Below, one piece after another: positions 12,981-35,500 of a DNA stretch of 39,072 nucleotides. Numbering within the stretch: position 1 is the first letter of the stretch; the number at the start of each line of letters is the position of its first letter. The stretch is from a virus. Lineage: Duplodnaviria > Caudoviricetes. The notes beneath the pieces are model-generated. The model did no database searches. It was not told the DNA's origin and worked only from the letters and a program-made list of their open reading frames with translations. The position numbers were made by a program, and so were the translations under genes. Where the stretch lies: the IMG/VR virus record IMGVR_UViG_3300048998_000060, positions 1 to 39,072 of that record. The stretch is one strand, 5' to 3'.

Positions 12981-13370
12981 ATGGACCTTCTGAATCTTGA
13001 CGAGCTGACCGAGCTGAACCGCTATGTTGCAATTCGCGGTGAGCAGTACCAGATCGTCGAACGTAGTGTTGGTGTTCTGCTGGACAGCATGAAGGTTGCG
13101 AAAGCAGCTCAGCAAGCCGGCAAGAACAAGACCACCAACGGCAAAAGCGAAGAAGTTTTCTTCGAGAACATGATCAAGACCATCGAAACGATCATCCCGG
13201 ATTGCCCGAGCGCCGTAGTACGTGGCCTCACCATGCAACAGATGTTCGCAGTGTTCGAGTTCGCCAACCGCGATCCGAACAAGATGGCTGAAGAAGCAGT
13301 GAACGCCCAGGCCGGCACTGTCGAATCTGATGGCGCGATCCACAGTGAAGTAGAAGCCCCAAAGAGCTGA
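12981..13370 (+). CDS. tail assembly chaperone (gpG-like)
   Basis: Between tube and tape measure genes. Ends in slippery C CCA AAG (13358-13364). Confidence 0.85.
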   Translation: MDLLNLDELTELNRYVAIRGEQYQIVERSVGVLLDSMKVAKAAQQAGKNKTTNGKSEEVFFENMIKTIETIIPDCPSAVVRGLTMQQMFAVFEFANRDPNKMAEEAVNAQAGTVESDGAIHSEVEAPKS

Positions 13371-13696
13371 CCGTCGAAGCGATTGACTTCTCGTTCCTCT
13401 TCTCTCGCTTCTGCTGGTTTTACGGATGGACGGATACTCATGTGCTGGCAATGCCAGCACGTAGGTTCTGGATGATGGATAGGCAGATCGGCCGGATTCA
13501 AGCGGAGCAAGAGATTCGCAGAATCCAGGGTACGATGCTCACCAACCCTCCACAGAGCAACGAGCAGCTCCAACGGATCACTGACTACATGGGTCGGTTA
13601 ACGTTGGAAATCGGCGAGAAGGTAACGATTCGGCGGAATGCAATTGTTGCACCTGAACCCGGAGCCTCCGCCAAATTCGCTAAACTATTAGGATAG
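13364..13696 (+). CDS. tail assembly chaperone -1 frameshift extension (gpGT-like, about 238 aa fusion)
   Basis: The -1 frame is open from the slip site: ELTVEAIDFSFLFSRFCWFYGWTDTHVLAMPARRFW..., continuous with ORF 13442-13696. Confidence 0.8.
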   Translation, partial: ELTVEAIDFSFLFSRFCWFYGWTDTHVLAMPARRFWMMDRQIGRIQAEQEIRRIQGTMLTNPPQSNEQLQRITDYMGRLTLEIGEKVTIRRNAIVAPEPGASAKFAKLLG

Positions 13697-18326: not shown

Positions 18327-18707
18327 GTGGCTGAATATAAAGATTTGATCGGCATCCCCTTTGAGTACGGTGGTCGCAGCCTCGCTGACAATAAGCTCGA
18401 CTGCTACGGGCTAGTAAAGGTGATGTCTGAGCGCAATGGGATCATGCTTCCCGAACGTTCTGTGAGCGAAGATCACAACTTGATTCACGCTCTGATGGCT
18501 TCACAGATGAATGTCTGGAAGCTACTGCCCGGCCCAAAGGAAGGTGCAGTCGTTCTGTTCAGGGTCAAGAAGCGCCCGTGTCACGTTGCCTACATGCTCA
18601 ACGAGTTCGAATTTATCCATACCTGGGAAGACTCTGGTGGCGTCGTCATTGAACGCCTCAGCAACTGGGATCGCAGAATTGAGGGGTTCTATGAATATGT
18701 CGGTTGA
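18327..18707 (+). CDS. NlpC/P60 (C40) tail tip assembly protein (gpK-like)
   Basis: GIPFEYGGR...DCYGLV...HVAY...FIH catalytic motifs. Confidence 0.88.
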   Translation: MAEYKDLIGIPFEYGGRSLADNKLDCYGLVKVMSERNGIMLPERSVSEDHNLIHALMASQMNVWKLLPGPKEGAVVLFRVKKRPCHVAYMLNEFEFIHTWEDSGGVVIERLSNWDRRIEGFYEYVG

Positions 18708-21700
18708 GGTGGTCAAGCCCCAGGTTCGGTTTATCTATGTGACCAACCCGTTCCAGCCAGCAGACAACAAGGTAGAAATCAGCCAGGATTACGACAAATC
18801 TCGTAGCCTGGCTGATTGCCTTGGTCCGCTTGAGGGCGACTGGGCCGTATCCGTATCGGGGAAAGTGATCGATAAGGAGAAGTGGCCGGATATCTACCTT
18901 CACGAACGTGACTGCGTAGTCATCTGCCCGATCATCGCAGGCGGTGGTGGAGGTGGTGGCAAGAGCATTCTTCGTCTGGTAGCTCTGGTCGCTTTGACCT
19001 ACTTCACTGCGGGCTATGGTGCTGCCGCTGCTGGCGCTATGGGTGTGACCTCGACTGCTGGTATCGCATTGGTGTCCGCGGGCATCATGATGGCCGGTAC
19101 GATGGCTATCAACGCCTTGCTGCCTGCCGCTACCCCAAAGGTTGCTGCATCGGGTTCGAGCTATGACTCCAGCCCAACCTACGGTATCGATGGTCCGAAG
19201 AACATGAGCACCCGGAGCATCCCGGTGCCAGTCGTTTATGGCGAGACCTGGTTCTCTGGCAACTTCATTGAGTCATACGTCGACAACGTTGGTGACGATC
19301 AGTACCTGAACATCCTGATGAACTGCGGTGAAGGCCCGGTCAGCGGGTTCAGTGACCTTCAGATCAACGACCAGCCGGCGAGCGACTTCACGAACGTTCA
19401 GACCTGGTTCCGCGAGGGTACTCAGACTCAGACGATCATCCCGTACTTCGGTGACATCATCGTCCCGGTCAACCGTAGCGTGGAGATTACTCAGGACACC
19501 TATGTGAATCACAGCGTTACCGACGCCTGTGATCGCTTGCGTGTGGACTTCGTTCTGCCATCCGGTATCAACCAAGTAGACGATGAAGATGGTCTGCTCG
19601 GCTTCACTGTGACCTGGCAGCTTGAGATTCGCGTCGAAGGCGGTACCTGGGGTCCGTTCGTTGAGAACGCGGTCAACTCGAACATCAGTGTGGTCGGCAA
19701 ACAGATGTCCGCCCTCCGTCGCAGCTACTACAGCGCCGTTCTTGACCGCAGCAAACGCTACGAGCTGCGCTGCATCCACACCCAATCTACCGATAACAGC
19801 AGTGTCAGCAACGCTGTGACCCTGACTGACATCAACGAAATCACCTTTGATGACCTGAACTACAAATACACCGCTCTGCTGGGTGTTCGAATCAAACTGA
19901 GCGAACAGCTCAGCGGCATTCCTGGCTTCAAGTACCTGCTCAAAGGTCGTCTGGTCCCCGTTTATGACGTGCTGACTGGTAACTTCAACGAGACCTGGAC
20001 TGACAACCCGGCCTGGATCGCACTCGACGTTCTGATGAACAAGCGATACGGCGGGCAGATCAACGTCAGCCGTATCAAGATGGAATACTTCCGTCAGTGG
20101 GCAACCTTCTGTACTGCGAACAACCTCAAGTTCAACGGGGTAATCGATCAGCGCACGAACCTGTGGGACGCTCTGACCCCAATCACCAAGATCGGTCGTG
20201 GTCAGATCATTCGTGCCGGTACTCGCTTTCAGGTTTCTCTGGTTCGTCAAACCACGCCTGTGCAAATGTTCTCGATGGGCAACATCAAGAAAGGCAGCCT
20301 GTCGATCGACTGGTTGTCCAGCGATGAACGCGCCAACGAATGTCATGTCACCTACTACGACAAGTCTGACAGCGGCAAACAGAAGACTGTGATCGTCCCG
20401 AATCTCGCTGCTCGTGAGCGCGGTGAAGAAGCGATCCCTACTGAGCTGACTCTGTACGGCGTCGACAACGTTACTCAGGCTACCCGTGAAGGTACTCTGG
20501 CGATGAACATGCAGCAGTTGCTGCAAACCATCTCCTTTGATGCACCTATCTCGTCCATCGTCTGTACGCTGGGTGACGTGGTTGCAATTCAACACGACAT
20601 GCCGGACTGGGGTCAGGGCGGTCTGACTGAGAGTGCGGGCAGCACTGCAAACGTACTGGTCGTCGATCACCCTGTAGACATGAGCCTGGGCGGCGACTAC
20701 GTTGTTCGAGTTCGTCACGACAAGGTTCTGCAAGGTACTTGGGAAGTCGACACCATTGTCGGCAACATCGTGATCCCTACCGGCCCGTTCAACGTTCAGA
20801 TGTTCGAGCGGTGGCGTCGTCTTGTCGCACCCGGTACCGGTGCTGACTATCAGATTCAAGAAGCGATCATCGACCAGTTCGGTCGTCATGGTCTTCGTCT
20901 GGATACCACTACCGGTCTGAAAGCGGGCGACACGATTCGCACATACGACACCGATGTCATTGAGACCCGTGCCGTAGCCTCTGTGAGCGCTGATGGTCTG
21001 CGAATCACACCGACATCAGCGTTCAGTGCTATCCCTGCCCCTATGAGCCCCTGGGCGTTCGGTTTGAACGGCAGCGAAGTAAAGATGCTGACCGTGATGG
21101 ACATCAGCGGCAAGTCTGATCTGTGGCGCACTATCAGTGGCCTCGAGTACCTGAATGCTGCATACGATGACACCGTAATCGACTACAAGCCTGATCCGGT
21201 CAACACGAGCCCAACCATCAGCCCTGTGACTTTCTTGGGTTTCATTGAGCGCCGGTACCTCGTGGGTGCTTCGTACACCTCTGACGTCGAGATGACCTGG
21301 AGCAGTGTCGACCTGACCTACAGCTACGCCGACATCTACATCAACATCGACGGTGAAGGCTGGAAGTTGAAAGACGCGAACGCCTCTTTCTACAATCTGG
21401 TCGATGTCGCGAGCGGTACGATTCAGGTTCGTCTTGTTCCGGTCACAATGGAAGGCTTCAAGGGTTCGTTCGATAGCCAGCCGATCTACACCTACACCGT
21501 AGTGGGTGGAGTTCCACGCAACCCTGATCCACCCGTGAACTTCCGTCTGGGCACTGTGACTTCGAGCATCATCGAGCTGGTGTGGGGCGACTTGGATGCC
21601 TGGTCTGCGGCGCAGAACGTTTACGCCTACGAAATCTGGCACGCTGAAGGTCAGAACGCTGTGCTCGAATCGGCACAGATGTTGACCTCGACCAAGAACG

Positions 21701-22617
21701 ATCACTACCCTCACATCGGTTTGACTGCGATGTCGTGGCACACCTACTGGATTCGGACCAGCAACGTCACTGCGAAGAACGCCAAGTCTGGGTTCATCCC
21801 AACTGGTGGTCTGAGTGTGCAGGTGAAAGACAACGATCCGTTCGGTCTGGTAGACCTGACTGACCTGGCTCCGTCTCTGCGCGAAGCGATCAACAGTCCT
21901 CAAGTCATCGCTGACCTGTCGACCATCATCGGCAACGCTGCGACCAAGCTTGAGAAAGCCGACGACGCTCAGAAGCAAGAAGTGTTCAACCGTGAACAGG
22001 CGATCGGTGATGTACAAGCCTCGATCACTGAACAGGTTGGCGTAGTAGTTGATGCGACCTCTGCAATGGCAGCCCGGGTTACTGCTCTCGAAGCGGGTAC
22101 TTCGGCCGGTACTCAAGCCAAGATCGACGAGCTGACTCAAGTCGTGACCGACGCTGACAGCAGCCTGGCTCAGAAGATCACCTTGATGCAGGTCAAGTTC
22201 GCCGATGATCTGTCTGCTGCGATCACTGAAGAAGCCACCGCACGAGCTACTGCTGTGGGCGCACTTGCTCAAACCGTGCAGACCTTGACGACTACAGTGG
22301 GCGAGAACACTACTTCCCTTCAAGAAGTCAAGACTGTGACTGATGGGGTGAAAGCTTCCTACACTCTGCGGATCGACGTGAACGGAATCGTGAGCGGGTT
22401 TGGTCTTGCAACTGGTGAGGGCGGTACCAGCGAGTTCGCAATCATGGCCAGTCGATTCAAGATTTACGGCCCAGGCCCAGCAGGTGAGGTGGTCAAGACC
22501 GCGGTCTTCTCCATCGATGCTGATACCGGTGTTGCGTACCTGCGAAACGCTGTTGTGGGCAACCTTCAGTCTGACAACTACATCTCCGGCGTGTCGGGGT
22601 GGTGCCTAAAAAAGTAG
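18697..22617 (+). CDS. central tail fibre / host-specificity protein (gpJ-like, N-terminal gpI-like fusion), short 1306-aa form
   Basis: GAGGGG RBS before ATG 18697. IPVPVVYGE, GEGPVSG and WTDNPAW motifs, an FN3 domain, a coiled coil and a DUF1983-like end (GIVSGFGL...FAIMASRF...LQSDNY..GVSGW). Confidence 0.92.
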   Translation: MSVEVVKPQVRFIYVTNPFQPADNKVEISQDYDKSRSLADCLGPLEGDWAVSVSGKVIDKEKWPDIYLHERDCVVICPIIAGGGGGGGKSILRLVALVALTYFTAGYGAAAAGAMGVTSTAGIALVSAGIMMAGTMAINALLPAATPKVAASGSSYDSSPTYGIDGPKNMSTRSIPVPVVYGETWFSGNFIESYVDNVGDDQYLNILMNCGEGPVSGFSDLQINDQPASDFTNVQTWFREGTQTQTIIPYFGDIIVPVNRSVEITQDTYVNHSVTDACDRLRVDFVLPSGINQVDDEDGLLGFTVTWQLEIRVEGGTWGPFVENAVNSNISVVGKQMSALRRSYYSAVLDRSKRYELRCIHTQSTDNSSVSNAVTLTDINEITFDDLNYKYTALLGVRIKLSEQLSGIPGFKYLLKGRLVPVYDVLTGNFNETWTDNPAWIALDVLMNKRYGGQINVSRIKMEYFRQWATFCTANNLKFNGVIDQRTNLWDALTPITKIGRGQIIRAGTRFQVSLVRQTTPVQMFSMGNIKKGSLSIDWLSSDERANECHVTYYDKSDSGKQKTVIVPNLAARERGEEAIPTELTLYGVDNVTQATREGTLAMNMQQLLQTISFDAPISSIVCTLGDVVAIQHDMPDWGQGGLTESAGSTANVLVVDHPVDMSLGGDYVVRVRHDKVLQGTWEVDTIVGNIVIPTGPFNVQMFERWRRLVAPGTGADYQIQEAIIDQFGRHGLRLDTTTGLKAGDTIRTYDTDVIETRAVASVSADGLRITPTSAFSAIPAPMSPWAFGLNGSEVKMLTVMDISGKSDLWRTISGLEYLNAAYDDTVIDYKPDPVNTSPTISPVTFLGFIERRYLVGASYTSDVEMTWSSVDLTYSYADIYINIDGEGWKLKDANASFYNLVDVASGTIQVRLVPVTMEGFKGSFDSQPIYTYTVVGGVPRNPDPPVNFRLGTVTSSIIELVWGDLDAWSAAQNVYAYEIWHAEGQNAVLESAQMLTSTKNDHYPHIGLTAMSWHTYWIRTSNVTAKNAKSGFIPTGGLSVQVKDNDPFGLVDLTDLAPSLREAINSPQVIADLSTIIGNAATKLEKADDAQKQEVFNREQAIGDVQASITEQVGVVVDATSAMAARVTALEAGTSAGTQAKIDELTQVVTDADSSLAQKITLMQVKFADDLSAAITEEATARATAVGALAQTVQTLTTTVGENTTSLQEVKTVTDGVKASYTLRIDVNGIVSGFGLATGEGGTSEFAIMASRFKIYGPGPAGEVVKTAVFSIDADTGVAYLRNAVVGNLQSDNYISGVSGWCLKK

Positions 22618-22651
22618 GTTCCATCACCCTGGAATACGACCGGGGTGATGG
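22608..22651 (+). other. programmed -1 ribosomal frameshift signal
   Basis: In-frame A AAA AAG (22608-22614), then TAG, a 6-nt spacer and a 12-bp hairpin CCATCACCCTGG-AATACGA-CCGGGGTGATGG (22621-22651). Confidence 0.8.
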
Positions 22652-23207
22652 TGTGATTGAATCCCAGGCGTTTGATTCCGAGTTCCAGAATGCGATTGTG
22701 ATGGGCGACATCTCAGCAATGGAGGGGACCTTCACAGGTCGCCTCTCTGCTGACTCAATCGATGTGTTGGGCAATCTCCAGCTCGCTGGTGGGTCTGTAG
22801 CTGTCACACAGATCGACCAACGAGCGAGCTTCGGTGTTGCGGATGGTGCAGCTCTGGACTTTCAATACAAGAACGTGGCTCTGACGGTTGTAGAAGTACC
22901 GGAAGGCATGAGCGGGGCCTGGTGTGCGTGCGCAGTGCAGTTCTTCGTACCCGATATCGAGGGGAACCAGTTCAGGGTCAACTGGAGGTTCCTGTTCGAT
23001 GGTACGACCTACTACACCAACGCCATCGCTGGGTTGCCACTTGGTTGGAACATGGTTGAGTTTCTGGTTTACGTTAGCGGTTCAGGGTCTCACACTCTGA
23101 TTTGGCAGGTTCAGTGGGGTCGTTACTGGACCGGCATTGAAGACCCTCCCACTTTCGGGCCGCTGATCCAGAACATCACAATGAGGACGGACATGATCCG
23201 TAAATGA
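22614..23207 (+). CDS. gpJ C-terminal module 1 (-1 frame extension; long form about 1503 aa)
   Basis: ORF in the -1 frame beginning at the slip site. SEFQNAIVMGDISAMEGTFTGRLSA is the repeat that normally follows the GW motif in gpJ. Confidence 0.75.
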   Translation, partial: VGSITLEYDRGDGVIESQAFDSEFQNAIVMGDISAMEGTFTGRLSADSIDVLGNLQLAGGSVAVTQIDQRASFGVADGAALDFQYKNVALTVVEVPEGMSGAWCACAVQFFVPDIEGNQFRVNWRFLFDGTTYYTNAIAGLPLGWNMVEFLVYVSGSGSHTLIWQVQWGRYWTGIEDPPTFGPLIQNITMRTDMIRK

Positions 23208-23208
23208 C

Positions 23209-23682
23209 ATGGTAATGGTCTTCGATCCAACCAAAAACTATGCCGAGTTTGGGAACGCCTTCATTCGAGGGCGTCTCAAAGGTGCAAACGGTGAGGCTCG
23301 CTTCAAGCTCACCGCCAACACTCTGAACGCGGTGAGCACTCTGAACATCAAGGGCGGTGCGGTGACGTACAACTTCGCTCTCAGGTATCAGGGTGTTCAG
23401 TCAACAGCGCCTCTTACTGGGACGTTCGAGGTTGTAGACAACGGGGTTTTCCTCGAATTTATCTGCTATGGTTCCGGCTGCACAGGGGTGATCATCGACG
23501 GCGTTCTTCAGCCGATCATCTCTCAGAAGAAGGTTTCTATGGGATGCATCCCCTGGAACATGGTCTTGCCAATGGCCAAGGGCACGCACACCGTTCAGCT
23601 TGTTCACCCAGGTACATCAGTGAGCAGCGACGGTTACATTTTCGTGAAGTACATCCGGCCGACGGGCTCGGGTAACGCATAG
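23209..23682 (+). CDS. gpJ C-terminal-like module 2 (free-standing)
   Basis: AEFGNAFIRGRLKGANGEARFKLTANTLNAVSTLNIKGGAVT, paralogous to the start of module 1. Confidence 0.75.
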   Translation: MVMVFDPTKNYAEFGNAFIRGRLKGANGEARFKLTANTLNAVSTLNIKGGAVTYNFALRYQGVQSTAPLTGTFEVVDNGVFLEFICYGSGCTGVIIDGVLQPIISQKKVSMGCIPWNMVLPMAKGTHTVQLVHPGTSVSSDGYIFVKYIRPTGSGNA

Positions 23683-23691
23683 GGGTCAGCA

Positions 23692-24492
23692 ATGGCTGGT
23701 GAAGCAGAGTGCCAATTCAACACGAACGTGTGGTTGCGCGGTCGTCTTGTAGGCGTCAACGGTGACTTCTCAGGTACGTTCAGCGCTCTCAACGTAGATG
23801 TGGCCGGCGCCCTGAACATTCGCAACGGTGCTGTTTCGGCCTACACCTCTTATAGCGCCACCGCATATCCCTCTCTACAGAAGGGGATGATGAAAACTCT
23901 GGAGTTCACGGTTCAGCAGCAGCCTTTCAACTCGATCATCGACATCACCATTCCGATGACCTGTGAGGTGTACTACTACCGCTGTGAGTTCCCAGCAAAA
24001 ATCAGGTGGTACCGAAACAACGTGCTGGTCAAAGAGGACGACATCAATGACCTGTACACCCGGGGGCTTGGTGGCAACCAGTACAACCATCGAATCAGCT
24101 TTGCATCGGTGAGGCTGATCGACTTCGATGTGCCAGCAGATGCTGTCGTGACCTATCGCGTGGAGATTATCGACTACTACCTGTACGCTCGTGGCATGGG
24201 TACGATCCCGCTGCCAGGCAACCCAGGTGGTTACTCCGGCTACTACACCTACAACGGCGACGGGTTCACTTCTGACGCTGCGTACTGGAACAACCTGAGA
24301 AACCCCTCGTACCCGGACACTCAGTATTGGTACGGCGAACAAGGTTCAGGTGGTGTAGGTGCCGGTTATGCGATCAACTCGAACCACATCGTTGAAACAT
24401 CGACCAACAAGTTCTCAACTCAGGCGATGATCAAGCCGAACATTCGTCTATACTTCAAGGGCAAAGCTCTGATCGGTATCCGCAAAAGGTGA
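23692..24492 (+). CDS. gpJ C-terminal-like module 3 (free-standing, putative receptor-binding)
   Basis: CQFNTNVWLRGRLVGVNGDFSGTFSALNVDVAGALNIRNGAVS, followed by a Tyr/Gly-rich insertion. GGGG RBS. Confidence 0.75.
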   Translation: MAGEAECQFNTNVWLRGRLVGVNGDFSGTFSALNVDVAGALNIRNGAVSAYTSYSATAYPSLQKGMMKTLEFTVQQQPFNSIIDITIPMTCEVYYYRCEFPAKIRWYRNNVLVKEDDINDLYTRGLGGNQYNHRISFASVRLIDFDVPADAVVTYRVEIIDYYLYARGMGTIPLPGNPGGYSGYYTYNGDGFTSDAAYWNNLRNPSYPDTQYWYGEQGSGGVGAGYAINSNHIVETSTNKFSTQAMIKPNIRLYFKGKALIGIRKR

Positions 24493-24496
24493 AATC

Positions 24497-24925
24497 ATGT
24501 TCAAAGGCACAATCTACAACGTCAACACCGGACTGATCGTCAGCTCTATGGTCTCCAGTACCGAAGAGGCGATCACTCTTCAGCTCACCCTGAACCCTGA
24601 TCATCGGGTTTACATGGGCCAAGAGTTCAACAACGACCTGCATTACTTCGTTGATGGCGTTCCTGTATCGAAGCTGAGAATGCCTTTGACCATCAATGGC
24701 GAGATTTACGACCACAGCGGTGAAGAGCTCCAGTTTCATCCTGGGGACACTGTGAAGATCGAGGGCATCCCAAACGGTGCTCAGGTTATCTACCCGGGTG
24801 GCAGTCTCATCGTAGATGACGGCTTCATCGAGTGGTCTACCGATGAGTCCAACTTCTTCTCCTTCGTAATCGAAGCTCAGCCATACATGAGAGAAATTAT
24901 TTATGCCAATTTTGTCCAAGCATGA
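24497..24925 (+). CDS. tail tip accessory / fibre assembly protein
   Basis: 142 aa, YNVNTGLIVS...HYFVDG...IEGIPNGA...IEAQPY pattern of small tail-associated proteins. AAGGTG RBS. Confidence 0.6.
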   Translation: MFKGTIYNVNTGLIVSSMVSSTEEAITLQLTLNPDHRVYMGQEFNNDLHYFVDGVPVSKLRMPLTINGEIYDHSGEELQFHPGDTVKIEGIPNGAQVIYPGGSLIVDDGFIEWSTDESNFFSFVIEAQPYMREIIYANFVQA

Positions 24926-25283
24926 CCCTCTCAGCACTACGCCAGCTAGTGAAATAGTGATTCGTCAGCGTGGTGGTCAAGAAGAGTCTCTGGTTGATAC
25001 TCAGTACGGCCGGCTTCAGTTCGATCTTGCGAGCGACCGTCGAATGAACTCTGTGCTGATGACGCTTACTCCTGGTGATGCAACAAGCGTCACTGAATGG
25101 AAGCTGTTGGACAACACCACAGTTACTCTGACCTATGAACAGCTCAGAGACCTGATTGAAGAAGCCAAGCTCGCATTTGGATTCCGGTGTCAGTACGTTT
25201 TCCCTATTGTTCAAGAGCTCCTAGAGCTGTCAAGAACAAAGGGTGCCACTATGCGTGACCTCGAATCACGGAAATGGTACTGA
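24903..25283 (+). CDS. DUF4376-like tail fibre chaperone
   Basis: FDLASDRRMN...EWKLLDNTTVTLTYEQL motif. Confidence 0.65.
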   Translation: MPILSKHDPLSTTPASEIVIRQRGGQEESLVDTQYGRLQFDLASDRRMNSVLMTLTPGDATSVTEWKLLDNTTVTLTYEQLRDLIEEAKLAFGFRCQYVFPIVQELLELSRTKGATMRDLESRKWY

Positions 25284-25331: not shown

Positions 25332-27416
25332 ATGACCTGGTACACCACTGGCACCATCACTCTCGTCCAAAACAGCGATACAGCCACGGGTGATGGTACT
25401 CAGTGGCTCGAAAACGTTCGCTATGGCGATATTCTCATGGTGGCTGACAAGCTCTATGAGGTCGTCGAAGCAAAGAACGATGTCCAGCTGACACTGACGA
25501 AGCCGTACACAGGCGCGACCGTAGTTGGTCAGCCATACGCGCTCATTCGAAACATGACCAACGCCAGCAATTACGACCTGATCAAACAGATCGACACGTT
25601 GCTGACCGAGCGCACCGAGAATCTTGACCAGTTCGCTGCATGGATGGCCGGTACCGTAAATGGTGGCCCAGCAAGCGACGGCAGATACCCTCTGACCAAC
25701 CGTGTTGGTTCGACCATTCAGGTCTACTGCCCAGCGAAGATGGCTTCTCTTGCAGGTGCTGATCAGACCGCAGCCATTCAAGCGGTAGCTGCTCAGGTCA
25801 CCACGCTGAATACTCTGCTGTCCGACTATTCAGACATCGAGGCGAAGGTCGAAGCGTTCACAGGGATCACTCTGGAATCCCTGGGCGGTCAAGCATCGAG
25901 TCTCAAGCTGTCTTCCATTGCAGCTCTGACCTTCGATCCGCTGGGCAACGAATTCATGGTGTCGATCAACGACAACTCGTTCGCAAAGTTCCCTATCAGC
26001 GACCGAGCGCTTTCTTTGCTCGCTGCTGAAACCCCTCAGCTGATGCGTACAGTGCTCGGTATCGCGTCCGGGGGTTCAGGTGGTGGGTCAGGGTCGGGTG
26101 GAGAGCCCGGACGTCGCGTAGCTATCATTGGGACCTCCCTGTGCCAGCTGTGCAACTACGGTACCGCGACTGAGCTTTCTCAGACCAATCGTTCCTGGAT
26201 CGGCTGGGCGATGACGCTCACCAATCAGCGCATGATCATGCCAATCTGGCGTGACATGAACCTGTACCCGGGTTGGGAAGCAGGTAGCAACGTCGGTACT
26301 CCTCGTGGGTTCCGCGGACTGAACGCTGGTGTGTCGAGTGACCACTCTGACAACATCTTGAACCGAGCGTCGTATCTGGTAGCCAACGTCGACTGTGACT
26401 TCGTGATCATCGACTCCGGTATCAACGACATCGGTAACAACAGCCTGACCAGCGACGACATCGCTCTGATGCGGGAACAGACTGCTGACTATCTGCTGGC
26501 CAACGGCAAAACTGTGATCCTGCTGCCTCTGCTCAGCCCTGCTGCCGCTTACTACCCGATCGGCAGTGTCCAGCGCCGCAAGATGCAGCGTGTGAACAAC
26601 CGTGCCCGCCAGTTCTGTCAGACCCGGACCAACCTGTACTTCTTCGATTGGACGGAGTACATGATGAACTTCAACGACCCCAACGGTCAGCCGAAGCCTC
26701 TGCACTCTGTAGACGGCCTTCACTTCGCCCCTCGTGGTGCGTTCGCTGTCGGTAAAGGGCTCGCTGACCTGTTCACTACCCTGCTGCCGAAAGCAGAGCG
26801 TCGTGTGTGGTCTCCTGAAGACCTGTACGACGGCACTCTCGATCCGTATGGCAACCTGATGCAGAACCCGTTCTGCTACGGTTCGAGCGGTACTCTTGAC
26901 GCAGGTGCTACGGGCTTCTGTGCAAACGGTATGCGTATCGGTATCAACAGCGGTGACGGCAGCGTTGTAGGGAGCATGGTTGCTCGTGCAGATGGTCGTG
27001 GTCAGTGGCAGCAGCTTGTAGTCACACCCGGTACCGCAGAAACTCAAGCTCTGTTCCGCGTAAGCGATATCGTCAACACTCTGCCGGCCGGCACCTGGGT
27101 TCAAGCAAGCGCAGAAGTAGAGTGCGATGCCTGGGATGGTTGGAAGGGTATCAACATTCAGGTACGCGACCTTGCTGTTGGTGGGATTACTTGTCACGCC
27201 ATGAAGGTCTATGATGGCTTCCCAAATACAGCAGAGACTTGGGCCGGCACTGTAGTAGGTCCAGCATTTCAGATCGTAGGCGATGGTTCACTGCTTCGCT
27301 GGCGCGTTGAAGCAACCTCTATGGCTGCTGCGACGGGCAAAGGTACTGTCAGAATTGGTGCCGTTGAGTTTCGCCCGGTCCAAGACCCTAAAATCATTGT
27401 GAACGCGGTGGTATAA
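25332..27416 (+). CDS. side tail fibre/spike 1 with SGNH/GDSL esterase and C-terminal carbohydrate-binding-like domain
   Basis: N-terminal MTWYTTGTITL tail anchor. SGNH blocks IIGTSL, NAGVSSD, DSGIND and DGLHF, then a beta-sandwich C-terminus. Confidence 0.8.
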   Translation: MTWYTTGTITLVQNSDTATGDGTQWLENVRYGDILMVADKLYEVVEAKNDVQLTLTKPYTGATVVGQPYALIRNMTNASNYDLIKQIDTLLTERTENLDQFAAWMAGTVNGGPASDGRYPLTNRVGSTIQVYCPAKMASLAGADQTAAIQAVAAQVTTLNTLLSDYSDIEAKVEAFTGITLESLGGQASSLKLSSIAALTFDPLGNEFMVSINDNSFAKFPISDRALSLLAAETPQLMRTVLGIASGGSGGGSGSGGEPGRRVAIIGTSLCQLCNYGTATELSQTNRSWIGWAMTLTNQRMIMPIWRDMNLYPGWEAGSNVGTPRGFRGLNAGVSSDHSDNILNRASYLVANVDCDFVIIDSGINDIGNNSLTSDDIALMREQTADYLLANGKTVILLPLLSPAAAYYPIGSVQRRKMQRVNNRARQFCQTRTNLYFFDWTEYMMNFNDPNGQPKPLHSVDGLHFAPRGAFAVGKGLADLFTTLLPKAERRVWSPEDLYDGTLDPYGNLMQNPFCYGSSGTLDAGATGFCANGMRIGINSGDGSVVGSMVARADGRGQWQQLVVTPGTAETQALFRVSDIVNTLPAGTWVQASAEVECDAWDGWKGINIQVRDLAVGGITCHAMKVYDGFPNTAETWAGTVVGPAFQIVGDGSLLRWRVEATSMAAATGKGTVRIGAVEFRPVQDPKIIVNAVV

Positions 27417-27418
27417 GC

Positions 27419-30280
27419 ATGAGCTGGTATAACGACGGCACTATCGCACTGACCTCTGGCAGCAAAGTTGTCATTGGTACAGAGACCAAATTTCTGAGCA
27501 ACATCCGCAATGGCTCGATTCTGATGATCGAAGGCAAACTGCGGATCATCAACGACATCAAGTCGGACACCGAGCTTGAGCTGGAAGTAGCCTATGACGG
27601 GACTACTGGTTCAGGTCGTGCCTACGAAATCATCCGTAACTGGACAGACACGAGTTCGACTGAGCTGGCTATTCGGATCGATGAGTTCTTGACCGATCGC
27701 CAACGCACGATGGATGAGTTTGTTGACTGGGTAAACGGTACGTACAACGGTGGTGTCGGCAACGAGGGTAAGTACCCTCTGACTGACCGCTACGGTGTCG
27801 TCACGCTCGTGAAAAGCCCACAGCGAATGGCCTACGAATCTGGTGGTCCAGGTAGCGGTGGTGGCAGCGGTGCTGATCTGAAGGGCGCGAACATCTGGTT
27901 GGCCAGCGACTACGGTGTACTCGGTGGTTCGACCATCGATGAGACCGACAACATCAACGATGCAATCGCAGCCTGTGGTCAGGCCGGCGGTGGTACCGTG
28001 ATCGTTCGCAGCCATAACGGTATCGACCCGATCTACATCAACAAGCTGATCTCCATTGAGTACAACAACGTCACCCTCAAATGGGAGAGTGACGTGACCT
28101 ACGGTTCGGTTGGATGGCAGCGCATCTCTGGTGGTCTGGCTGAGATTCGCCGCCCGGGTCAGACTGAGCTGCTGAAGCTTCGAGCCAACAGCACGACTGA
28201 TGCCAACGGCTACATGGTTCTGCCGATGAGAGCTGGTAACGGTTCGTTCTTGGTCGTGGGTGATCGCATCACTGTGCGTGGTCAGAACACCAAGTCAGGC
28301 GCCGTCATCGAGAAGCAAGTGACCACCGTAACTGCAATCAGCGGTGACGATGTGACCTGCTCGGATGAACCTGACTACACGTTCAAGCCGACCTACCCAC
28401 TTTCTGACTACCCGGAAGACTTGACCACCGGTACCACAATCTCGATCAGCGTGTTCTCGGCGATGACTACCAACGTCAAGAACACCGATGTGATCCCGGT
28501 TGTCAGCACGACTGGCTTCTTTGCTGGTGACCTGGTGTACATCAGCGACAGCCGTACCGAGAAAGACATGATGGCTCCGGTTGTCACCAACCTGCTGTCT
28601 GCTGCGAACATGGAAATCTGCCGGATCGCTGCTATCGAGGGGAACAACATTCGCCTTGAACGAGCTGTTCGTCGTGAGTATCTGATCGCCTGGGGTGCAG
28701 GTGTAGTGAAGATGGATGCTGTGAAGAACAGCCACATCAAGCTGCGCAACGTGACTTGGGTAGGCATTCAACCAGACCGCAAAGCACACGGTGCAGCTAT
28801 CAACTACGGTTGGGAATGCACCGTTCAGGTAGACGACATGTACGGCCGGGGTGGTCGCAAAGGGATCGGTATTCGTATCGCCTATGCCTACGACTGTCAC
28901 GCCATTGGTTCGAAGGTCTATGACGCCTACAGCTTCGCATCTGCTGAAGGGTACGGCATCAGCCTCTACTACTCGACTCTCTGCACAGTGCGGAACAACA
29001 TCTCCTCTGGGAACCGTCACAACATCCTGTTGCAGACCGCGACCTCGTGTGACGTGTTCGACAACACCTGCAACGATGACTACATCAGTGGCATCGACTT
29101 GCACGGTGCCGGCTCTGTTGACTGCCGAGTCATGCGCAACCGTATCTCGCGGTCGAAATCGTATGCAGACGGTGTTACCAACGGTGGTGCCATTCGTAAC
29201 GGTAACACTGCGCACACCATCGGTGACCACCGGACTGTGATCGCTGACAACTACATCGAGGGCTACCTGGATACCAAGTGTGCGGCGATCGACGTTTCGC
29301 CAAGCTCGAATGGTGTGGTGGTTCGAAACAACGATATCGTGGACTGTGCAGTAGGCTTCCGTCACTACAACGTGGGCAGCGCGATCACGCCTGCTCAGTA
29401 CAGCGACCGCATCTTGCTGGACAGCAACACCTACACCCGAGTAGCCAGCCCATACGGTCTGAACAACTACTCGAACTCGATCGTCACCGAGATTTATGCC
29501 ATCAACGAGAAGTCCATCGAGAACAGCACCCACTTTGTCATCAAGGGTATCCCGAAGGTGACTATGATCGGCTGCAAGATCATCGCACCCAAAGCTGCTG
29601 CCGGTGGTTACGCTTTCGATATCAACGGGTCGACCAAGTTCATCGGCTATGACAACGTGGCCGGCGAAGCTGCACGCGGGTTCAAGATCACCAACTGCGT
29701 GTACGCCAAAATGGTGCGCAACTTCCTGGGCGATACTCTCGAAGGCATCGGCGTAACAGATGGTGGTGGTAACACTACTCTGCTGAACCTTCAGAACACC
29801 GATGTTGTTTCGGGTGGCGGTGGTACTGCGAGCCCTGCGAAGTTCACTCGCATCAACGGTACTCTGGCTGTGAACGCAACCTCGACTGACCCGGTGAACA
29901 TCGACACGAACACCCCAAGCATCGCCAACGGTCTCACAGCCGTCTCTGGGGCCGTCAACGTCGCAATCGGGAGTCTTATCGAGGTGTACGCTTGCATCCC
30001 GTATGTGAGCTTGGGCGGCTCTACAGGCCCAGTCTCTGCGCACTTGTGGGCAGACGGTACCCGAGTAGCTTCGGCGATCGATCGGTTGACCGCTTCTACA
30101 GGTGCAGAGAACACCGGTGGTAAAGACTTCGTGCTGGTGGCCAACTTCATCGCCACCGAAACGGTTCTCGATTTGATCCTCAAGATCGGTCCGAACGCCA
30201 CGAGTAACACGATCATGCTCAACAGCAAATGGAACGGGGCAAGTCAGCCCTACCTGCTCATCAAGGAGTTCCCGCAATGA
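27419..30280 (+). CDS. tail spike 2, right-handed parallel beta-helix depolymerase
   Basis: N-terminal anchor paralogous to spike 1. SDYGVLG..IDETDNINDAIAA...GGGTV cap motif, Asn/Cys-ladder beta-helix repeats and IDLHG motif. Confidence 0.85.
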   Translation: MSWYNDGTIALTSGSKVVIGTETKFLSNIRNGSILMIEGKLRIINDIKSDTELELEVAYDGTTGSGRAYEIIRNWTDTSSTELAIRIDEFLTDRQRTMDEFVDWVNGTYNGGVGNEGKYPLTDRYGVVTLVKSPQRMAYESGGPGSGGGSGADLKGANIWLASDYGVLGGSTIDETDNINDAIAACGQAGGGTVIVRSHNGIDPIYINKLISIEYNNVTLKWESDVTYGSVGWQRISGGLAEIRRPGQTELLKLRANSTTDANGYMVLPMRAGNGSFLVVGDRITVRGQNTKSGAVIEKQVTTVTAISGDDVTCSDEPDYTFKPTYPLSDYPEDLTTGTTISISVFSAMTTNVKNTDVIPVVSTTGFFAGDLVYISDSRTEKDMMAPVVTNLLSAANMEICRIAAIEGNNIRLERAVRREYLIAWGAGVVKMDAVKNSHIKLRNVTWVGIQPDRKAHGAAINYGWECTVQVDDMYGRGGRKGIGIRIAYAYDCHAIGSKVYDAYSFASAEGYGISLYYSTLCTVRNNISSGNRHNILLQTATSCDVFDNTCNDDYISGIDLHGAGSVDCRVMRNRISRSKSYADGVTNGGAIRNGNTAHTIGDHRTVIADNYIEGYLDTKCAAIDVSPSSNGVVVRNNDIVDCAVGFRHYNVGSAITPAQYSDRILLDSNTYTRVASPYGLNNYSNSIVTEIYAINEKSIENSTHFVIKGIPKVTMIGCKIIAPKAAAGGYAFDINGSTKFIGYDNVAGEAARGFKITNCVYAKMVRNFLGDTLEGIGVTDGGGNTTLLNLQNTDVVSGGGGTASPAKFTRINGTLAVNATSTDPVNIDTNTPSIANGLTAVSGAVNVAIGSLIEVYACIPYVSLGGSTGPVSAHLWADGTRVASAIDRLTASTGAENTGGKDFVLVANFIATETVLDLILKIGPNATSNTIMLNSKWNGASQPYLLIKEFPQ

Positions 30281-30684
30281 AAAGCGAGTTCTTGACCAAG
30301 TTCAACGGCATTCAACTTGAGAAGCGTAAGTGGGAGATAGCCGCGCCCCTCAAGTTCAATGACGAAGTGTTCGGGCGAATCACAGCCGAGGTCGGTTTTC
30401 AGACTGATCTTGCGTCGATCAACTCGCTGCGCTACATCGCACCCCTTCTGTACGCTCTTCTCGTGGGCTACGGGAACGCCGCCTGTACGATTCATGACAT
30501 GCTCTACAAAGAGGGACGGCTCTCTCGTAAAGCGTGTGACGAAGTGCTCTATCGTGCGCTTCGTGCCGAAGGTGTGGCAAAATGGCGTGCTGCCATTTTC
30601 TACGCCGGCGTAAGGGTATTTGGCGGCCGTTTTTACAATGATGACAATGGCTCCAACAACTCTCAGGCTGCTCAGGCCGTTTAA
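30277..30684 (+). CDS. DUF1353 family protein
   Basis: GFQTDLASI...ACTIHDMLY...RKACDEVL...FYAGVRVFG. ATGA overlap, AAGGAG RBS. Confidence 0.85.
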   Translation: MKSEFLTKFNGIQLEKRKWEIAAPLKFNDEVFGRITAEVGFQTDLASINSLRYIAPLLYALLVGYGNAACTIHDMLYKEGRLSRKACDEVLYRALRAEGVAKWRAAIFYAGVRVFGGRFYNDDNGSNNSQAAQAV

Positions 30685-30699
30685 TACGAGGAAAGCGCA

Positions 30700-32439
30700 A
30701 TGCCAAATATGGTAGAGGATATCAATGTCGGAGGTACGTGGCTCAACGCTTCCGTTACCGCTGGCTACACGCCGGGCAAACAGATCGTTCTCCAGAACAA
30801 GGGCGTGTATTCGCTTTTGGTAATGGTCAAGTCTGACTCGCCTGCATCGAGCTCCATCTCGGGCTTCCGTCTGGGTCCGAACGAACGGTTTTCGTCCATC
30901 TTCAATGATACGGTCTGGGTTCGTTCTGAATCCGGTACCACCAGTATGGCCATCGCCTCCCTGGATAACGCTCTCGACAGCACTCTGCCTGCATCGGTTG
31001 CTCTCAGCGATACCGTACTCGACCTGGGTACCGGTGATACCAAACAGCTGACTGCAACTGTCTCGCCGGCCGGTGTCTCTCAGACCGTGACCTGGACTTC
31101 GAGCGATCCGACCATCGCAACCGTTTCGAACACCGGTCTGGTTCGAAGCCTCAAGAAAGGCAGCGTGTCGATCAAAGCCATCGCAACCAACGGTGTCTTC
31201 AGCTCTTGCGCTACCACTGGTACTCAGATCAAGGCTGTTACTCAGTGGAACTCGGTCAACAAAGAGTTCGATAACTTCGGTACCACTCAAGGTCTGTTGG
31301 GTTACTGGTCTCGTGTTCCTCAGCGTATCGGCGATGCTACCAAGCAAGTGCGCCTGTACTTCTACAACTGGATCATGAAAGACACCCGTAACGGCCTCTG
31401 CACCAACCCAGGCAACGGCAACACTGTTACCGGGTGCTCGGTCGAGTTCAACGGTATCGTCAAGCCTGTGACCTTCAACGGCGGTCGTACTCTGGCAATG
31501 GTGGATGGTGAAGCGGGCGTGTTCGCAGACCCACTGAAGGCAAGCGACTTCAACGTTACCTCGTTTCCGAAAAATGCCCTGATCACGATCAACACTCGTA
31601 TCACCATCCCAACTGGTGGCGTGCTGGGTTACTCGACTCGTGAAAGCGGTCAAACCAACGGCTCGCAGTCGATGTACTACAACCCAGCCAATACAACTCT
31701 GTCGAGCATCGACGCAGCCGGCCTGGTCACTACCACCGGTACCGCTCCACAAAGCCGTATCGTCATGTACTGCCCGTTCGTTCTGGGTCTGCACGTCGAT
31801 CAAGATGCAGTATCGGTTCTGGTTGAGGGTGACTCGATTATGGCCGGCGTGGGTGACGCTTCTGTTCAGGACAACATCGGTATCGGTTATGCAAACCGCA
31901 TGATCACTGCTGCACAGGTTGCAGGTCTGAACCTGGGTGTTGGTGGCTCTCGCGCAATCGACGGCATTCTCGATCCTCGCTTCACTGCGCTGCACAAATA
32001 CTGTACTCATGCTATGGTTGGCTACGGTACCAACAACCTGGAGCCAGGTGTCAGCACCACCGCTCAGTCGATTGTCGACATCATCAAACAGCGGATCGCT
32101 TCTCACCAAGCAAACGGTATCAATCGTACCCTGGTATGCAAGCTCACACCTCGTACTACTGCAACCGTTAGCGCCACTGGCTGGACCACTCTGGACAACC
32201 AAGTTGCTCAGGGTCAAGCTCTCACCAACCAGTTCAACACTCTGCTGGATACCTCTGGTTTCTACGGCGTGTTGCAGAACACCGCAGTTCGAGCACCAAG
32301 CAATTTGGACCTGTGGATTCCGAACAACACCCCGGATGGTTTGCACCCAGGTGGTAACGACAACGGTGGCGGTCATGCGAAGCTTGCCGTTCAAGGCACT
32401 TCGCAGTTCACTGCGATGATTGCCCCAGTGGCAGCGTAA
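30700..32439 (+). CDS. virion appendage: shared N-domain + Ig-like (Big_2) + beta-sandwich + SGNH esterase
   Basis: Big_2 motif QLTATVSP...VTWTSSDPTIATVSNTGLV. SGNH blocks EGDSI, NLGVGG, GYGTNN and DGLHP. Confidence 0.82.
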   Translation: MPNMVEDINVGGTWLNASVTAGYTPGKQIVLQNKGVYSLLVMVKSDSPASSSISGFRLGPNERFSSIFNDTVWVRSESGTTSMAIASLDNALDSTLPASVALSDTVLDLGTGDTKQLTATVSPAGVSQTVTWTSSDPTIATVSNTGLVRSLKKGSVSIKAIATNGVFSSCATTGTQIKAVTQWNSVNKEFDNFGTTQGLLGYWSRVPQRIGDATKQVRLYFYNWIMKDTRNGLCTNPGNGNTVTGCSVEFNGIVKPVTFNGGRTLAMVDGEAGVFADPLKASDFNVTSFPKNALITINTRITIPTGGVLGYSTRESGQTNGSQSMYYNPANTTLSSIDAAGLVTTTGTAPQSRIVMYCPFVLGLHVDQDAVSVLVEGDSIMAGVGDASVQDNIGIGYANRMITAAQVAGLNLGVGGSRAIDGILDPRFTALHKYCTHAMVGYGTNNLEPGVSTTAQSIVDIIKQRIASHQANGINRTLVCKLTPRTTATVSATGWTTLDNQVAQGQALTNQFNTLLDTSGFYGVLQNTAVRAPSNLDLWIPNNTPDGLHPGGNDNGGGHAKLAVQGTSQFTAMIAPVAA

Positions 32440-32445
32440 TCAAAT

Positions 32446-32471
32446 AGACCGCAGGGATGCGGTCTCTATTT
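32446..32471 (+). terminator. hairpin / weak terminator
   Basis: AGACCGCA-GGGA-TGCGGTCT followed by CTATTT. Confidence 0.5.
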
Positions 32472-32479
32472 AAGAGGTC

Positions 32480-32500
32480 CAAAATGGCTGACATGATCGA
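32480..32500 (+). repeat. 21-nt direct repeat, copy 1
   Basis: CAAAATGGCTGACATGATCGA, identical to 36464-36484. Confidence 0.85.
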
Positions 32501-35500
32501 AGATGTGGGAATCCCCCGAGACTGGGTGAACGCTTACACCGTCTCTGGTTTCACCGCGGGCTCAGCTCTCACCATCCAGAACAAGGGCGCATACCCTATT
32601 CTGGTAATGGTGAGAGTCGCGAGCCCTGCTGCCGGCAATCTCAGCGGCTTTCGTCTGACTCAAAATGAAACTTGGCAAGGCAAGGCTGGCGATACAGTGT
32701 GGCTGCGTGGCGAGGGCGGGACTTCGATGGTCTGTCTTCAGTCGAGTACGGCCAACGTCATCGTGCCTGAAAGCGTTTCTGTTTCTCCCAAGCCAATCAG
32801 TCTGACCGCAGGGTCTACTCAACAGCTGCTGGCCAACGTTCTTCCTTCCGGGTCGCCTCAAGCAGTGTCCTGGTCTACCAGTGATGCTTCTGTTGCAACC
32901 GTATCGACTGCTGGTCTGGTTACTGCTGTGCCTGGTGCTGCTACCGGCGCAACTGCAAGCATCACCGCCACCACTTCGAACGGTAAGACCGACACCACCG
33001 TCTTGACCATCGCTGCCACTGTTGTGGTGCCGGCAAGCGTCTCTATCGATCCAACCTCGGCCTCGCTGACCGCGGGTACTACCCAGCAGTTCACCGCGAC
33101 TGTGCTGCCTGCTAACTCGACCAACAAGACTGTCACCTGGGCAACCAGCGACACCTCGAAGGCGACTGTCAACGCAAGCGGCCTGGTGACCACTGTGATC
33201 GGCGCTGTAGGTGCTGTTGATCTGACTGCGACCACTGTATCTGGCGGCCGTACTTCGAAGGTCACTGTGACCGTTACTGTTGCAGAAGTTGCAATGATGG
33301 CGACCACGTACAACCCAATCGCGACCGTCTTCACCTCTATCACCACCGAAACTCGCACTTCGATGCGTATGCCCGTCACCATTGCCGGCGCTCGCAAGAA
33401 CTACGGTCACATGTTCCCTTGGTGGGCAGTCAAAGAGAACCTCACTCCGGTCACCAGTACCGGTTCGCAGAACGTGGGCAACGGTGTGACGTTCGAGAAG
33501 GTTGCGGTCGAGTACAACGGCGTCTCGATGCCCGCCTACTTCCCTGGCAACTCTCGTTCGGCTGTAGTCACTGACGGACAAGCAACTGACCCTGCTGCAT
33601 GGGTGAACGCTGCTGACTTCGGTTTGACCGAGTTCCCGCACGGGGCAACTCTCGTCGTCAAGTTCGACATGACTGTTCCAGCAAACGGTATCATCCCGAT
33701 CACTGACAAGTACCTGCCTGGCTTCACTGGCACCGTAGCTCAGTGCTGGACATATGACCCGGCTGCAACCGTTGTCTCTGACATCGACGCTGTAGGTGTT
33801 CGTACTCTCACCTCTGGCACTGCGGCAACCACTCGCGGCAAGTGGTTCAACGGTATCGGTATCGGCGTACCTGTCGACCCAACCGTATTGGCAGTCTGTG
33901 CATTCGGTGATTCTCTCGGCGCCGGCTTGAACGACGATGTGTTCCCACAACCATTCGGCCCTGGCTACATCGGTCGTTACCTGCAAGCTTTCACCAAGCC
34001 TGTTGCATACCTCAACCTGTGCGCTGTCGGTCGCTACGTTGTTCAGATGATCCCGGATGCTCGAATGACCCGTCTGGTCAAGCTGTGCAACCAGGGTATC
34101 GGTAACGGCGGTGCCAACGATCTGTTGTTTGGTCGCACTGGCGTCGTAAGCACCATGATCACTGCTATGAATGCCACCGTTGCTGCTTACAAAGCTGCGG
34201 GCTTGAAGACTGTGACCGTTCACAAAATGCCACCTGTCACCAACGACACGACCGGTAACTGGCAGATTCAGAGCAATCTGACCTACGCCACGAACTTCGA
34301 GCCGGGTGGTATCGCAGACGTCTTCAACGCCGCTATCGACAATCAGGGCTTTGACCTCGTTCTCAACGGTGATGAATGGCGTGATCTGACCGATCGCAAC
34401 AAGAACCGCACCAACGGTACTGCGAAGGCGTACTGGAAGGACGGTATTCACCCTCAGAAAATCCTCAACGACATCATGGTCGCGGTCGAGAAGCCTGCGC
34501 TGGTAGCTCTGTGGGCAAACGGCACCACTACCGGGCGTTCGATGGAAGCTGACTTCGTTGCGAAGACCTACAAGCAAGGTCTGCCTCTCGCATCGAGCAC
34601 TCTGTCTGCCATCGGTGGCGCTGTCACTCGCGCTTCGACTGCAACGTACTGGGACGCCGGCCTCTTGAAGACCGCTGCCGCGAACGTCGCACGGATTCAG
34701 ACTGATGGTCTGATCATCGAGCGCTCTCGCACCAACCTCCAGATTCAGTCCAACAACCCTGGTGCTTGGGGTAACGGTGCTGCAACTGGTACTGCAAACG
34801 GCGCGACCGGTCTGGATGGGACCAGCTCTGCTTTCCTGGCGACCTCGGGTAGCAGCACCAAGTCTCAGCACAACACCACGATCCCGACCACCAATCTGCC
34901 GTACACCGCACAAATCTGGGTGAAGACTCTCGCATCCGGCAAGGTGTATCTGCCAGCGTTCGGTATCTACGACAAGGTGATCAACGCTAACGACGACACC
35001 AGCTACTACGACTTCGCGACCAACACGTTTGGTGCGGGCATGATGACAGGGTGGAAGGCAGACGTCGGTGGTATCTACGGCATCTGGACTCGACTGAGCA
35101 TCACGATGGTCAACAGCCAGGCCGGGTCGATCTTCACTGCAATCTGGAAGCAGGACGCAACCGCTCAGATCACTTGGGGCGGCATGATGCTGGAGCAGTC
35201 TGCATCGCCAACCAGCTATGTTCCGACTACCACTGTTGCGGTGACTCGTGCAGCTGAAACTCTGCTGATCAAGAACGGCGAAGGCTGGTACTTGGGCCAG
35301 GGCACCATGGCTGCTGATGTCGACGACCTTGTTCTCGCTACTCAGAACACCAACGGCATCGCTGTCGAGGGTATCGGTCGGGTTCGTAAGCTGTCCTTCG
35401 ATGTTGGCACCAAGTTCGTAGCCAAGCGTCTCAACGTCATCGGCATGAACCTGGCCGGCGCTGAGTTCGGCAGCAACGTACCGGGTGTGGCTGACACTGA

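Follow-up and report, generated by a model that had tools for sequence, protein, structure and literature searches.

In some bacterial dnaX genes the 0-frame stop codon comes after the shift site and frameshifting yields the longer product, and upstream Shine-Dalgarno (SD)-like stimulators have been described for prokaryotic -1 signals (consulted sections of PMC5009743 and PMC4066793, respectively). Among phage frameshifts, the consulted part of PMC5009743 covers the tail chaperone genes G/GT and the addition of Ig domains to capsid and major tail proteins, and contains no tail-fibre or gpJ case. The central fibre protein gpJ of phage lambda is a trimer (PMC11101478, in the part consulted; PDB 8XCJ, 8XCK). 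Pseudomonas phage DEV has, with gp56, gp55 and gp54, a gpJ-like trimeric shaft, two small proteins, a modelled asymmetric tip and a mobile module, and the sole mention of a frameshift in the consulted text refers to a host mutation (PMC12892993). Here, a very probable programmed -1 frameshift is described at the end of the gene for a gpJ-like central tail fibre in a virus record of 39,072 bases (IMGVR_UViG_3300048998_000060; Duplodnaviria, Caudoviricetes), which is 35% complete according to CheckV and is called the window throughout. The shifted frame encodes a fibre head, and two free paralogues of this extension follow directly downstream.

The 0 frame of the window's gpJ stops within the fibre shaft, at the residues GWCLKK. 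The features at this junction are the following:

18697 to 22617, plus strand: gpJ-like central tail fibre, 0 frame, short form of 1306 residues; phrog_31 (E 7e-171), PF24801, PF13550 and PF09327.
22596 to 22603, plus strand: SD-like G-rich stretch upstream of the heptamer; predicted duplex with the 16S rRNA tail of -11.8 kcal/mol.
22608 to 22614, plus strand: slippery heptamer A AAA AAG, unchanged in each of the 17 aligned loci and also present in locus L176, described below.
22611 to 23207, plus strand: -1 extension, 198 codons after the shift; an insert of about 20 residues, a shaft segment and a jelly-roll head.
22615 to 22617, plus strand: 0-frame stop TAG abutting the heptamer; TAG or TAA in 17 of 17 loci, the stop of L176 lying five codons later.
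22621 to 22651, plus strand: predicted stimulatory hairpin of 12 base pairs, whose bases also encode the predicted beta-hairpin insert of the extension.
22653 to 22655, plus strand: in-frame GTG just past the stem, a candidate rival start with an SD-like sequence in the 3' arm of the stem.

The last gpJ codons, CTA AAA AAG TAG (22606-22617), place the heptamer in the X_XXY_YYZ phase, as the initial annotation had read from the sequence. This is the single in-phase A AAA AAG among the 29 Lys-Lys pairs in the 30 plus-strand open reading frames (ORFs) of the window. The CTA codon is rare as well, accounting for 10 of 874 Leu codons in these ORFs and for none of the other 109 Leu codons in gpJ and its extension. 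From the site onwards the -1 frame is open to the TGA at 23205-23207, and the predicted product lengths came out as annotated, with 1306 residues for the short and 1305 + 198 = 1503 residues for the long form. These lengths refer to the ATG at 18697; an alternative ATG at 18691 gives a short form of 1308 residues. Like E. coli dnaX, the gpJ end combines an A_AAA_AAG site with a 3' stem-loop, and it shares with the reversed dnaX arrangement that the shifted product is the long one (PMC5009743, consulted sections). It differs in that the product is a virion fibre and not a polymerase subunit and in that the SD-like element is not universal. This element (GGGGTGG at 22596-22602, overlapping the Gly-Trp codons and the -1-frame GTG codons 22599/22602) is present as claimed, yet it proved to be the weakest part of the signal, with GGG TGG in just 13 of the 17 aligned loci. 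In the other loci, predicted duplexes range from -6.3 to -12.3 kcal/mol. The spacing of an SD sequence can raise or lower -1 shifting.

Alignment of homologues retained the annotated heptamer without exception, and the junction was followed through several further collections of loci. Among 45 gpJ clusters, the 19 closest (43-100% identity, the window's included) end in GWx[LI]KK and the other 26 do not. Over the gpJ end, the cultured phages that come closest (73-78% identity) are five members of Nickievirus that infect Pseudomonas syringae, namely ZY21, phiK7B1, nickie, Nican01 and hairong; a block of about 57 nucleotides is nearly invariant in all five, while third positions vary on both of its flanks. 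A codon-neutral scan, which accepted every codon choice for the peptide NYxxGxxGWx[hydrophobic]KK, yielded 82 matches (25 viral, 57 from genomes), of which 28 were judged gpJ-like. The remaining 54 were dropped by eye, among them five with A AAA AAG but no stop and five with a stop but no heptamer. All 15 gpJ-like matches that stop after the Lys-Lys pair (13 distinct) carry xTA AAA AAG, compared with a heptamer in 0 of the 13 that read past it; no p-value is given because the loci share ancestry and the scan demanded Lys-Lys. The -1 frame of those 15 is open for 188-218 codons, with one ended at 70 codons by the end of its contig. Besides the window, the signal was found in 18 distinct loci, namely 13 from the scan, four more cultured phages and L176. 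In a set of 30 loci it was present in three full-length close relatives besides nickie (L012-L014); L015 ends before the gpJ end, and 25 distant loci end otherwise or are cut. Of the metagenome scans, the first, by pattern, returned 598 stretches with none confirmed, and a second returned 94 stretches that led to one distant locus. A further scan gave 17 matches, eight in fibre genes and nine unrelated.

Protein conservation moves from frame 0 to the -1 frame at the shift site. Across 16 gap-free loci, identity upstream is 0.76 in frame 0 (no stops) versus 0.40 in the -1 frame (13 stops), and downstream it is 0.49 in the -1 frame (no stops) versus 0.32 in frame 0 (21 stops). The annotated hairpin was also recovered: a spacer of 6 nucleotides is followed by CCATCACCCTGG, a loop of 7 nucleotides and CCGGGGTGATGG, forming 12 pairs with one G-U. 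This stem is stronger than those of 294 out of 300 synonymous recodings. The 54 nucleotides downstream of the site fold with -18.3 to -29.1 kcal/mol in 17 loci versus -2.1 to -17.2 kcal/mol in 11 read-through controls, and in 14 of the 17 loci no more than 6 of 300 synonymous recodings reach the stability of the native sequence. The stems vary greatly in sequence, and the 3' arm lies farther downstream in L013 and L092, where the peptide is nearly unchanged. A common structure imposed column by column pairs 76% of cells (5 of 500 shuffles were as high), a modest fit because the stem sequences differ and the 3' arm moves between loci. The position and strength of the stem are conserved more than its individual pairs. 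Taken together, the conserved heptamer and stem position, the frame switch, the lack of a universal start and the lack of indels (the last two detailed below) make programmed -1 frameshifting at the gpJ end very probable on sequence grounds. Since gpJ stops just after a slip signal kept in distant phages, short and long fibre chains are likely to be made. The two gpJ isoforms proposed in the initial annotation are compatible with these results; the annotation stopped there, and the downstream genes supply a reason for the short form.

AlphaFold2 modelled the extension (mean predicted local distance difference test score, pLDDT, 76) as a beta-hairpin, a shaft segment of low confidence and a confident jelly-roll head. 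The model strands of the insert span residues 5-11 and 17-23, and the insert of about 20 residues at the junction of the long form is encoded by the same bases as the RNA stem. Foldseek placed the model closest to the lambda gpJ tips 8XCJ/8XCK (E 3e-6) with TM-scores of merely 0.35-0.38, and VIA-align ranked TNF/C1q-like heads first (Z 10.6, root-mean-square deviation 3.0, 117 aligned). A PDB sequence search with the extension profile returned nothing (best E 0.51), and Pfam and PHROGs hold no family for the extension or for the downstream genes A and B. The extension profile itself retrieved 322 representatives at E <= 0.001. Among 147 newly listed homologues, 39 are short (18 with KKV or KKI near the start) and 108 long, and 53 of the 108 long homologues listed have a GW motif 120-420 residues before their end. 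That the -1 frame encodes the expected gpJ continuation, as annotated, is borne out by unbroken fibres, which pass from GW directly into the module of the extension; the long product is therefore an unbroken fibre plus the insert of about 20 residues. No in-frame fusion of the extension was seen among 150 listed matches, in that no long protein matched the profile from start to end. In roughly 20 further clusters at 50% identity the extension starts with KKV or KKA. One extension homologue, P0097, starts with ...PGKV instead of KKV and may use a different slippery heptamer.

The extension is followed by four genes:

23209 to 23682, plus strand: free paralogue A, 157 residues, shaft segment and beta head; hhalign to the extension 98.7%, E 3.5e-16.
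23692 to 24492, plus strand: free paralogue B, 266 residues, shaft segment and beta head; hhalign to the extension 98.1%, E 7e-14.
24497 to 24925, plus strand: cassette gene C, 142 residues; similar genes lie behind B in related loci; no PHROG, and no Pfam match above cut-off.
24903 to 25283, plus strand: cassette gene D, 126 residues, DUF4376 (PF14301, E 1.5e-6); a DUF4376 gene is likewise placed in L176.

A and B also match one another (hhalign 97.7%), and these comparisons show the extension, A and B to be paralogues by sequence. A and B represent two distinct conserved families. Both stand behind the extension in 18 of 19 rows, and in the 19th the contig ends. In the unbroken fibre P0118 a short gpJ would end at residue 347, and B aligns from 348 and A from 351. 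Thus, short gpJ together with A, or together with B, corresponds to one whole chain cut in two. Genes C and D are generally found behind A and B in related loci; gene C is a likely assembly helper and gene D a likely fibre-assembly helper. With gene A as the query, 25 viral loci were retrieved: nine have a free A gene, in every case on a contig on which the heptamer had been found before, and the remaining 16 are unbroken long fibres. The same gene, without any pattern, led to L176 (NZ_CP103299.1, 11551-19970), which has the same heptamer and a stem of 11 base pairs. Genome searches with gene A gave 1 match in 401 genomes of an order-wide sample and 4 in 63 of the family, with L177-L181 among them; judged by position and score, these matches repeat loci already counted.

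Three individual cassettes show peculiarities. L176 lies on a 54-kb plasmid of Endozoicomonas gorgoniicola that carries phage tail genes plus the cassette, and this plasmid may be a phage-plasmid. In L013 (9714-10475) a gene of 253 residues, methyltransferase-like by eye, is inserted between B and C, and in L048 (1752-2405, minus strand) the head of gene A has a Pro/Asp/Gly-rich insertion of about 65 residues.

The fibres in front of the cassette are diverse. Carriers include gpJ proteins of 1300-1500 residues, proteins of about 390 residues related to N4-like gp56 and, in marine gammaproteobacterial prophages, fibres of 208-338 residues beside a phrog_511-type virion gene. The latter we take to be podophage-type. 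Over its final 199 residues, the L082 shaft shares about 40% identity with LIT1 gp56. A tree on the 80 upstream residues required three label changes, two of them forced by supported branches, with the caution that the alignment is short and branches are long. This tree is compatible with a grafting of the cassette onto several fibre shafts. A mobile five-gene cassette whose tuned frameshift breaks the three-fold symmetry of the fibre, grafted at GW onto siphophage gpJ, N4-like gp56 and short podophage-type fibres, is a proposal that we rate just above even chances.

The paralogy of A and B with the extension gives a reason why a short isoform would be wanted. In the proposed mechanism, a fraction of ribosomes would slip by -1 on the tandem Lys codons at the stem, yielding short headless and long headed chains. 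As gpJ is a trimer, each fibre would be assembled from two short chains and a single long one. The two heads that such a trimer lacks would come from A and B, and the long chain would be the tether of a 1:1:1 heterotrimeric tip. Genes C and D would help to select the correct trimers, and the heads would bind a host surface receptor. Given frameshifting, we regard a 1:1:1 heterotrimer tethered by one long chain as the probable form of the tip; the full proposition, a single frameshifted chain in each trimer and a heterotrimeric tip completed by two free heads, has somewhat better than even chances.

In comparison with lambda, the window gpJ belongs to the same family and its extension folds nearest the lambda gpJ tip. 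However, the lambda head is in frame and homotrimeric, whereas the 0-frame product of the window is headless and its head lies in the -1 frame; the long form has the junction insert, and two free paralogous heads follow. Phage DEV shares the gpJ-like shaft with two small downstream proteins, but there a homotrimer is joined by one adaptor and one receptor-binding protein (RBP) (PMC12892993, consulted text), while the small proteins of the window are paralogous to the end of the fibre itself, and the frameshift would attach a third copy. On possible homology to gp55 and gp54, tblastn searches that used the extension or an A homologue as query each retrieved only six nickievirus records.

Several observations weigh against this interpretation. 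The fold of the 116-nucleotide region is ordinary (z -1.49; 15 of 200 shuffles equal it), and its centroid structure pairs differently, using upstream bases. The stems of L104, L135 and L078 are equalled by 65, 19 and 14 of 300 recodings. Of the covariation looked for in the stem, strength and position were kept, but column-wise covariation is weak, with changes on both sides in four of 12 pairs, a figure that 219 of 500 shuffles reach. The loci share descent, and the 15 and 13 scan matches are not independent draws; cassettes with other shift sites would also have escaped a scan that demanded Lys-Lys. Every locus has some possible start for the extension, either a GTG at -9 or -6 (14 of 17 distinct loci) or else an internal ATG or GTG. 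Gene A yielded a model of mediocre quality (mean pLDDT 64.5), for which Foldseek gave no match at E <= 0.001. Finally, if one-third of ribosomes shifted, random assembly would by simple arithmetic give at most 4/9 of trimers with exactly one long chain, so a sorting step would be needed, perhaps provided by C and D.

This last point leads to the strongest competitor, in which the frameshift is real and the tips are long-chain homotrimers or mixed, with A and B as alternative or accessory heads. It is just as compatible with junction, heptamer, stem and frame switch; both lambda gpJ and TNF/C1q-like heads form homotrimers, and mixtures are what random assembly would produce. Nevertheless, we consider it unlikely, as it accounts poorly for exactly two free paralogues behind the extension in nearly every row, each a distinct conserved family and each beginning where the short chain ends. 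A fibre that used only long chains would moreover favour an in-frame fusion, and the 150 listed matches contain none.

The candidate starts mentioned above bear on a second alternative, which has the extension translated as a third free head from its own start (GTG 22599/22602 or 22653), with heptamer and stem merely pausing or coupling the ribosome and all gpJ chains short. Public records do annotate the extension as a separate gene. A strong SD-like sequence (-11.6 kcal/mol) accompanies the GTG at 22653, a start from which the N-terminus would resemble those of A and B, and an ATG stands just before the conserved AEF motif in L070, L082 and L086. However, no start codon is common to all loci: L070, L082 and L086 lack the upstream GTG, and L005, L012, L118, L136 and L176 lack the internal start before the AEF motif, GTG 22653 in the window, so that different loci would need different starts. 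SD scores at the upstream GTG codons are only -2.8 to -7.9, and the residues from the upstream GTG to the Lys-Lys pair vary with the 0 frame. Own initiation would also fail to explain why the heptamer is invariant at the cost of very rare CTA/ATA codons. For these reasons an exclusively free extension appears quite improbable, and independent initiation, for example at GTG 22653, may add some free extension to the frameshifted product.

A third possibility is that RNA polymerase slips on the run of six A residues, adding one A and thereby making the fusion. The run is present in every locus, but the consulted passage on bacterial slippage concerns runs of nine A or T (PMC5009743), and the invariant G, the codon phase and the 3' stem suit a ribosomal signal of the dnaX type, which makes this highly improbable. 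The integrity of the run was checked on assembled contigs, not raw reads: a Logan contig of 6,006 nucleotides, possibly from the source sample, shows no differences or gaps, and one of 237 nucleotides from a second study crosses the junction without an indel. Even though the window is a single fragment and homopolymer runs attract indels, an assembly error or broken gene has a negligible probability and was rejected, as the identical junction occurs in five cultured phages, in Logan contigs of two studies and in distant loci.

The wider window encodes terminase, portal, capsid, tail tube, tape measure and the gpJ-like fibre, which by gene order is placed after the tape measure, gpL-like and NlpC-like genes and in which gpJ hub, FNIII and tail-tip domains were found. 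Promoter and terminator scans stayed at chance level. A candidate for the tail chaperone G/GT lies at 12981-13696, where an ORF ends in GCC CCA AAG AGC TGA with a slippery site C CCA AAG at 13358-13364 and a -1 frame open to 13696, and the phage is thus likely to use two tail frameshifts, one of the G/GT type and one at the gpJ end. The cassette is followed by four large genes (25332-36392) that look fibre- or spike-like; GDSL/SGNH esterase-like domains occur in two of them, and pairs share N-terminal modules. Two minus-strand ORFs of 408 and 207 residues (37009-39033) have no PHROG match. In distant gut-type tail genes (L019-L023, around 7560-7590), an A7 versus A8 difference at the gene end alters the C-terminus and the overlap with the next gene, as strain variation or assembly noise could do.

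The gpJ-end signal resembles the G/GT and Ig-domain frameshifts in being a site in the phage structural region that would set a short-to-long ratio. It differs from the former in lying at the end of gpJ, not in a chaperone gene between the major tail and tape measure genes, and from the latter in that the gene concerned is gpJ and not that of a capsid or major tail protein. Lactococcal phage Q54 reportedly has a +1 frameshift that joins its major tail protein to an RBP. In the literature searched, with supplements and subscription papers outside the scope, no report of a frameshift at the gpJ end was found, and term look-ups were negative in the consulted parts of the Oekolampad preprint, PMC3711429, PMC13455828 and PMC10721106. 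If the proposed mechanism is true, it would represent a new role for recoding, namely the fixing of subunit stoichiometry inside a single trimeric virion fibre. A symmetric shaft would then carry three different heads, each free to adapt to a different ligand or to a different side of a monomeric receptor. It would also correct the annotation of the cultured phages nickie, ZY21, phiK7B1, Nican01 and hairong, which now list the extension as a hypothetical gene of its own, and it directs attention to the genes that probably determine host range in phages studied for the biocontrol of Pseudomonas syringae.

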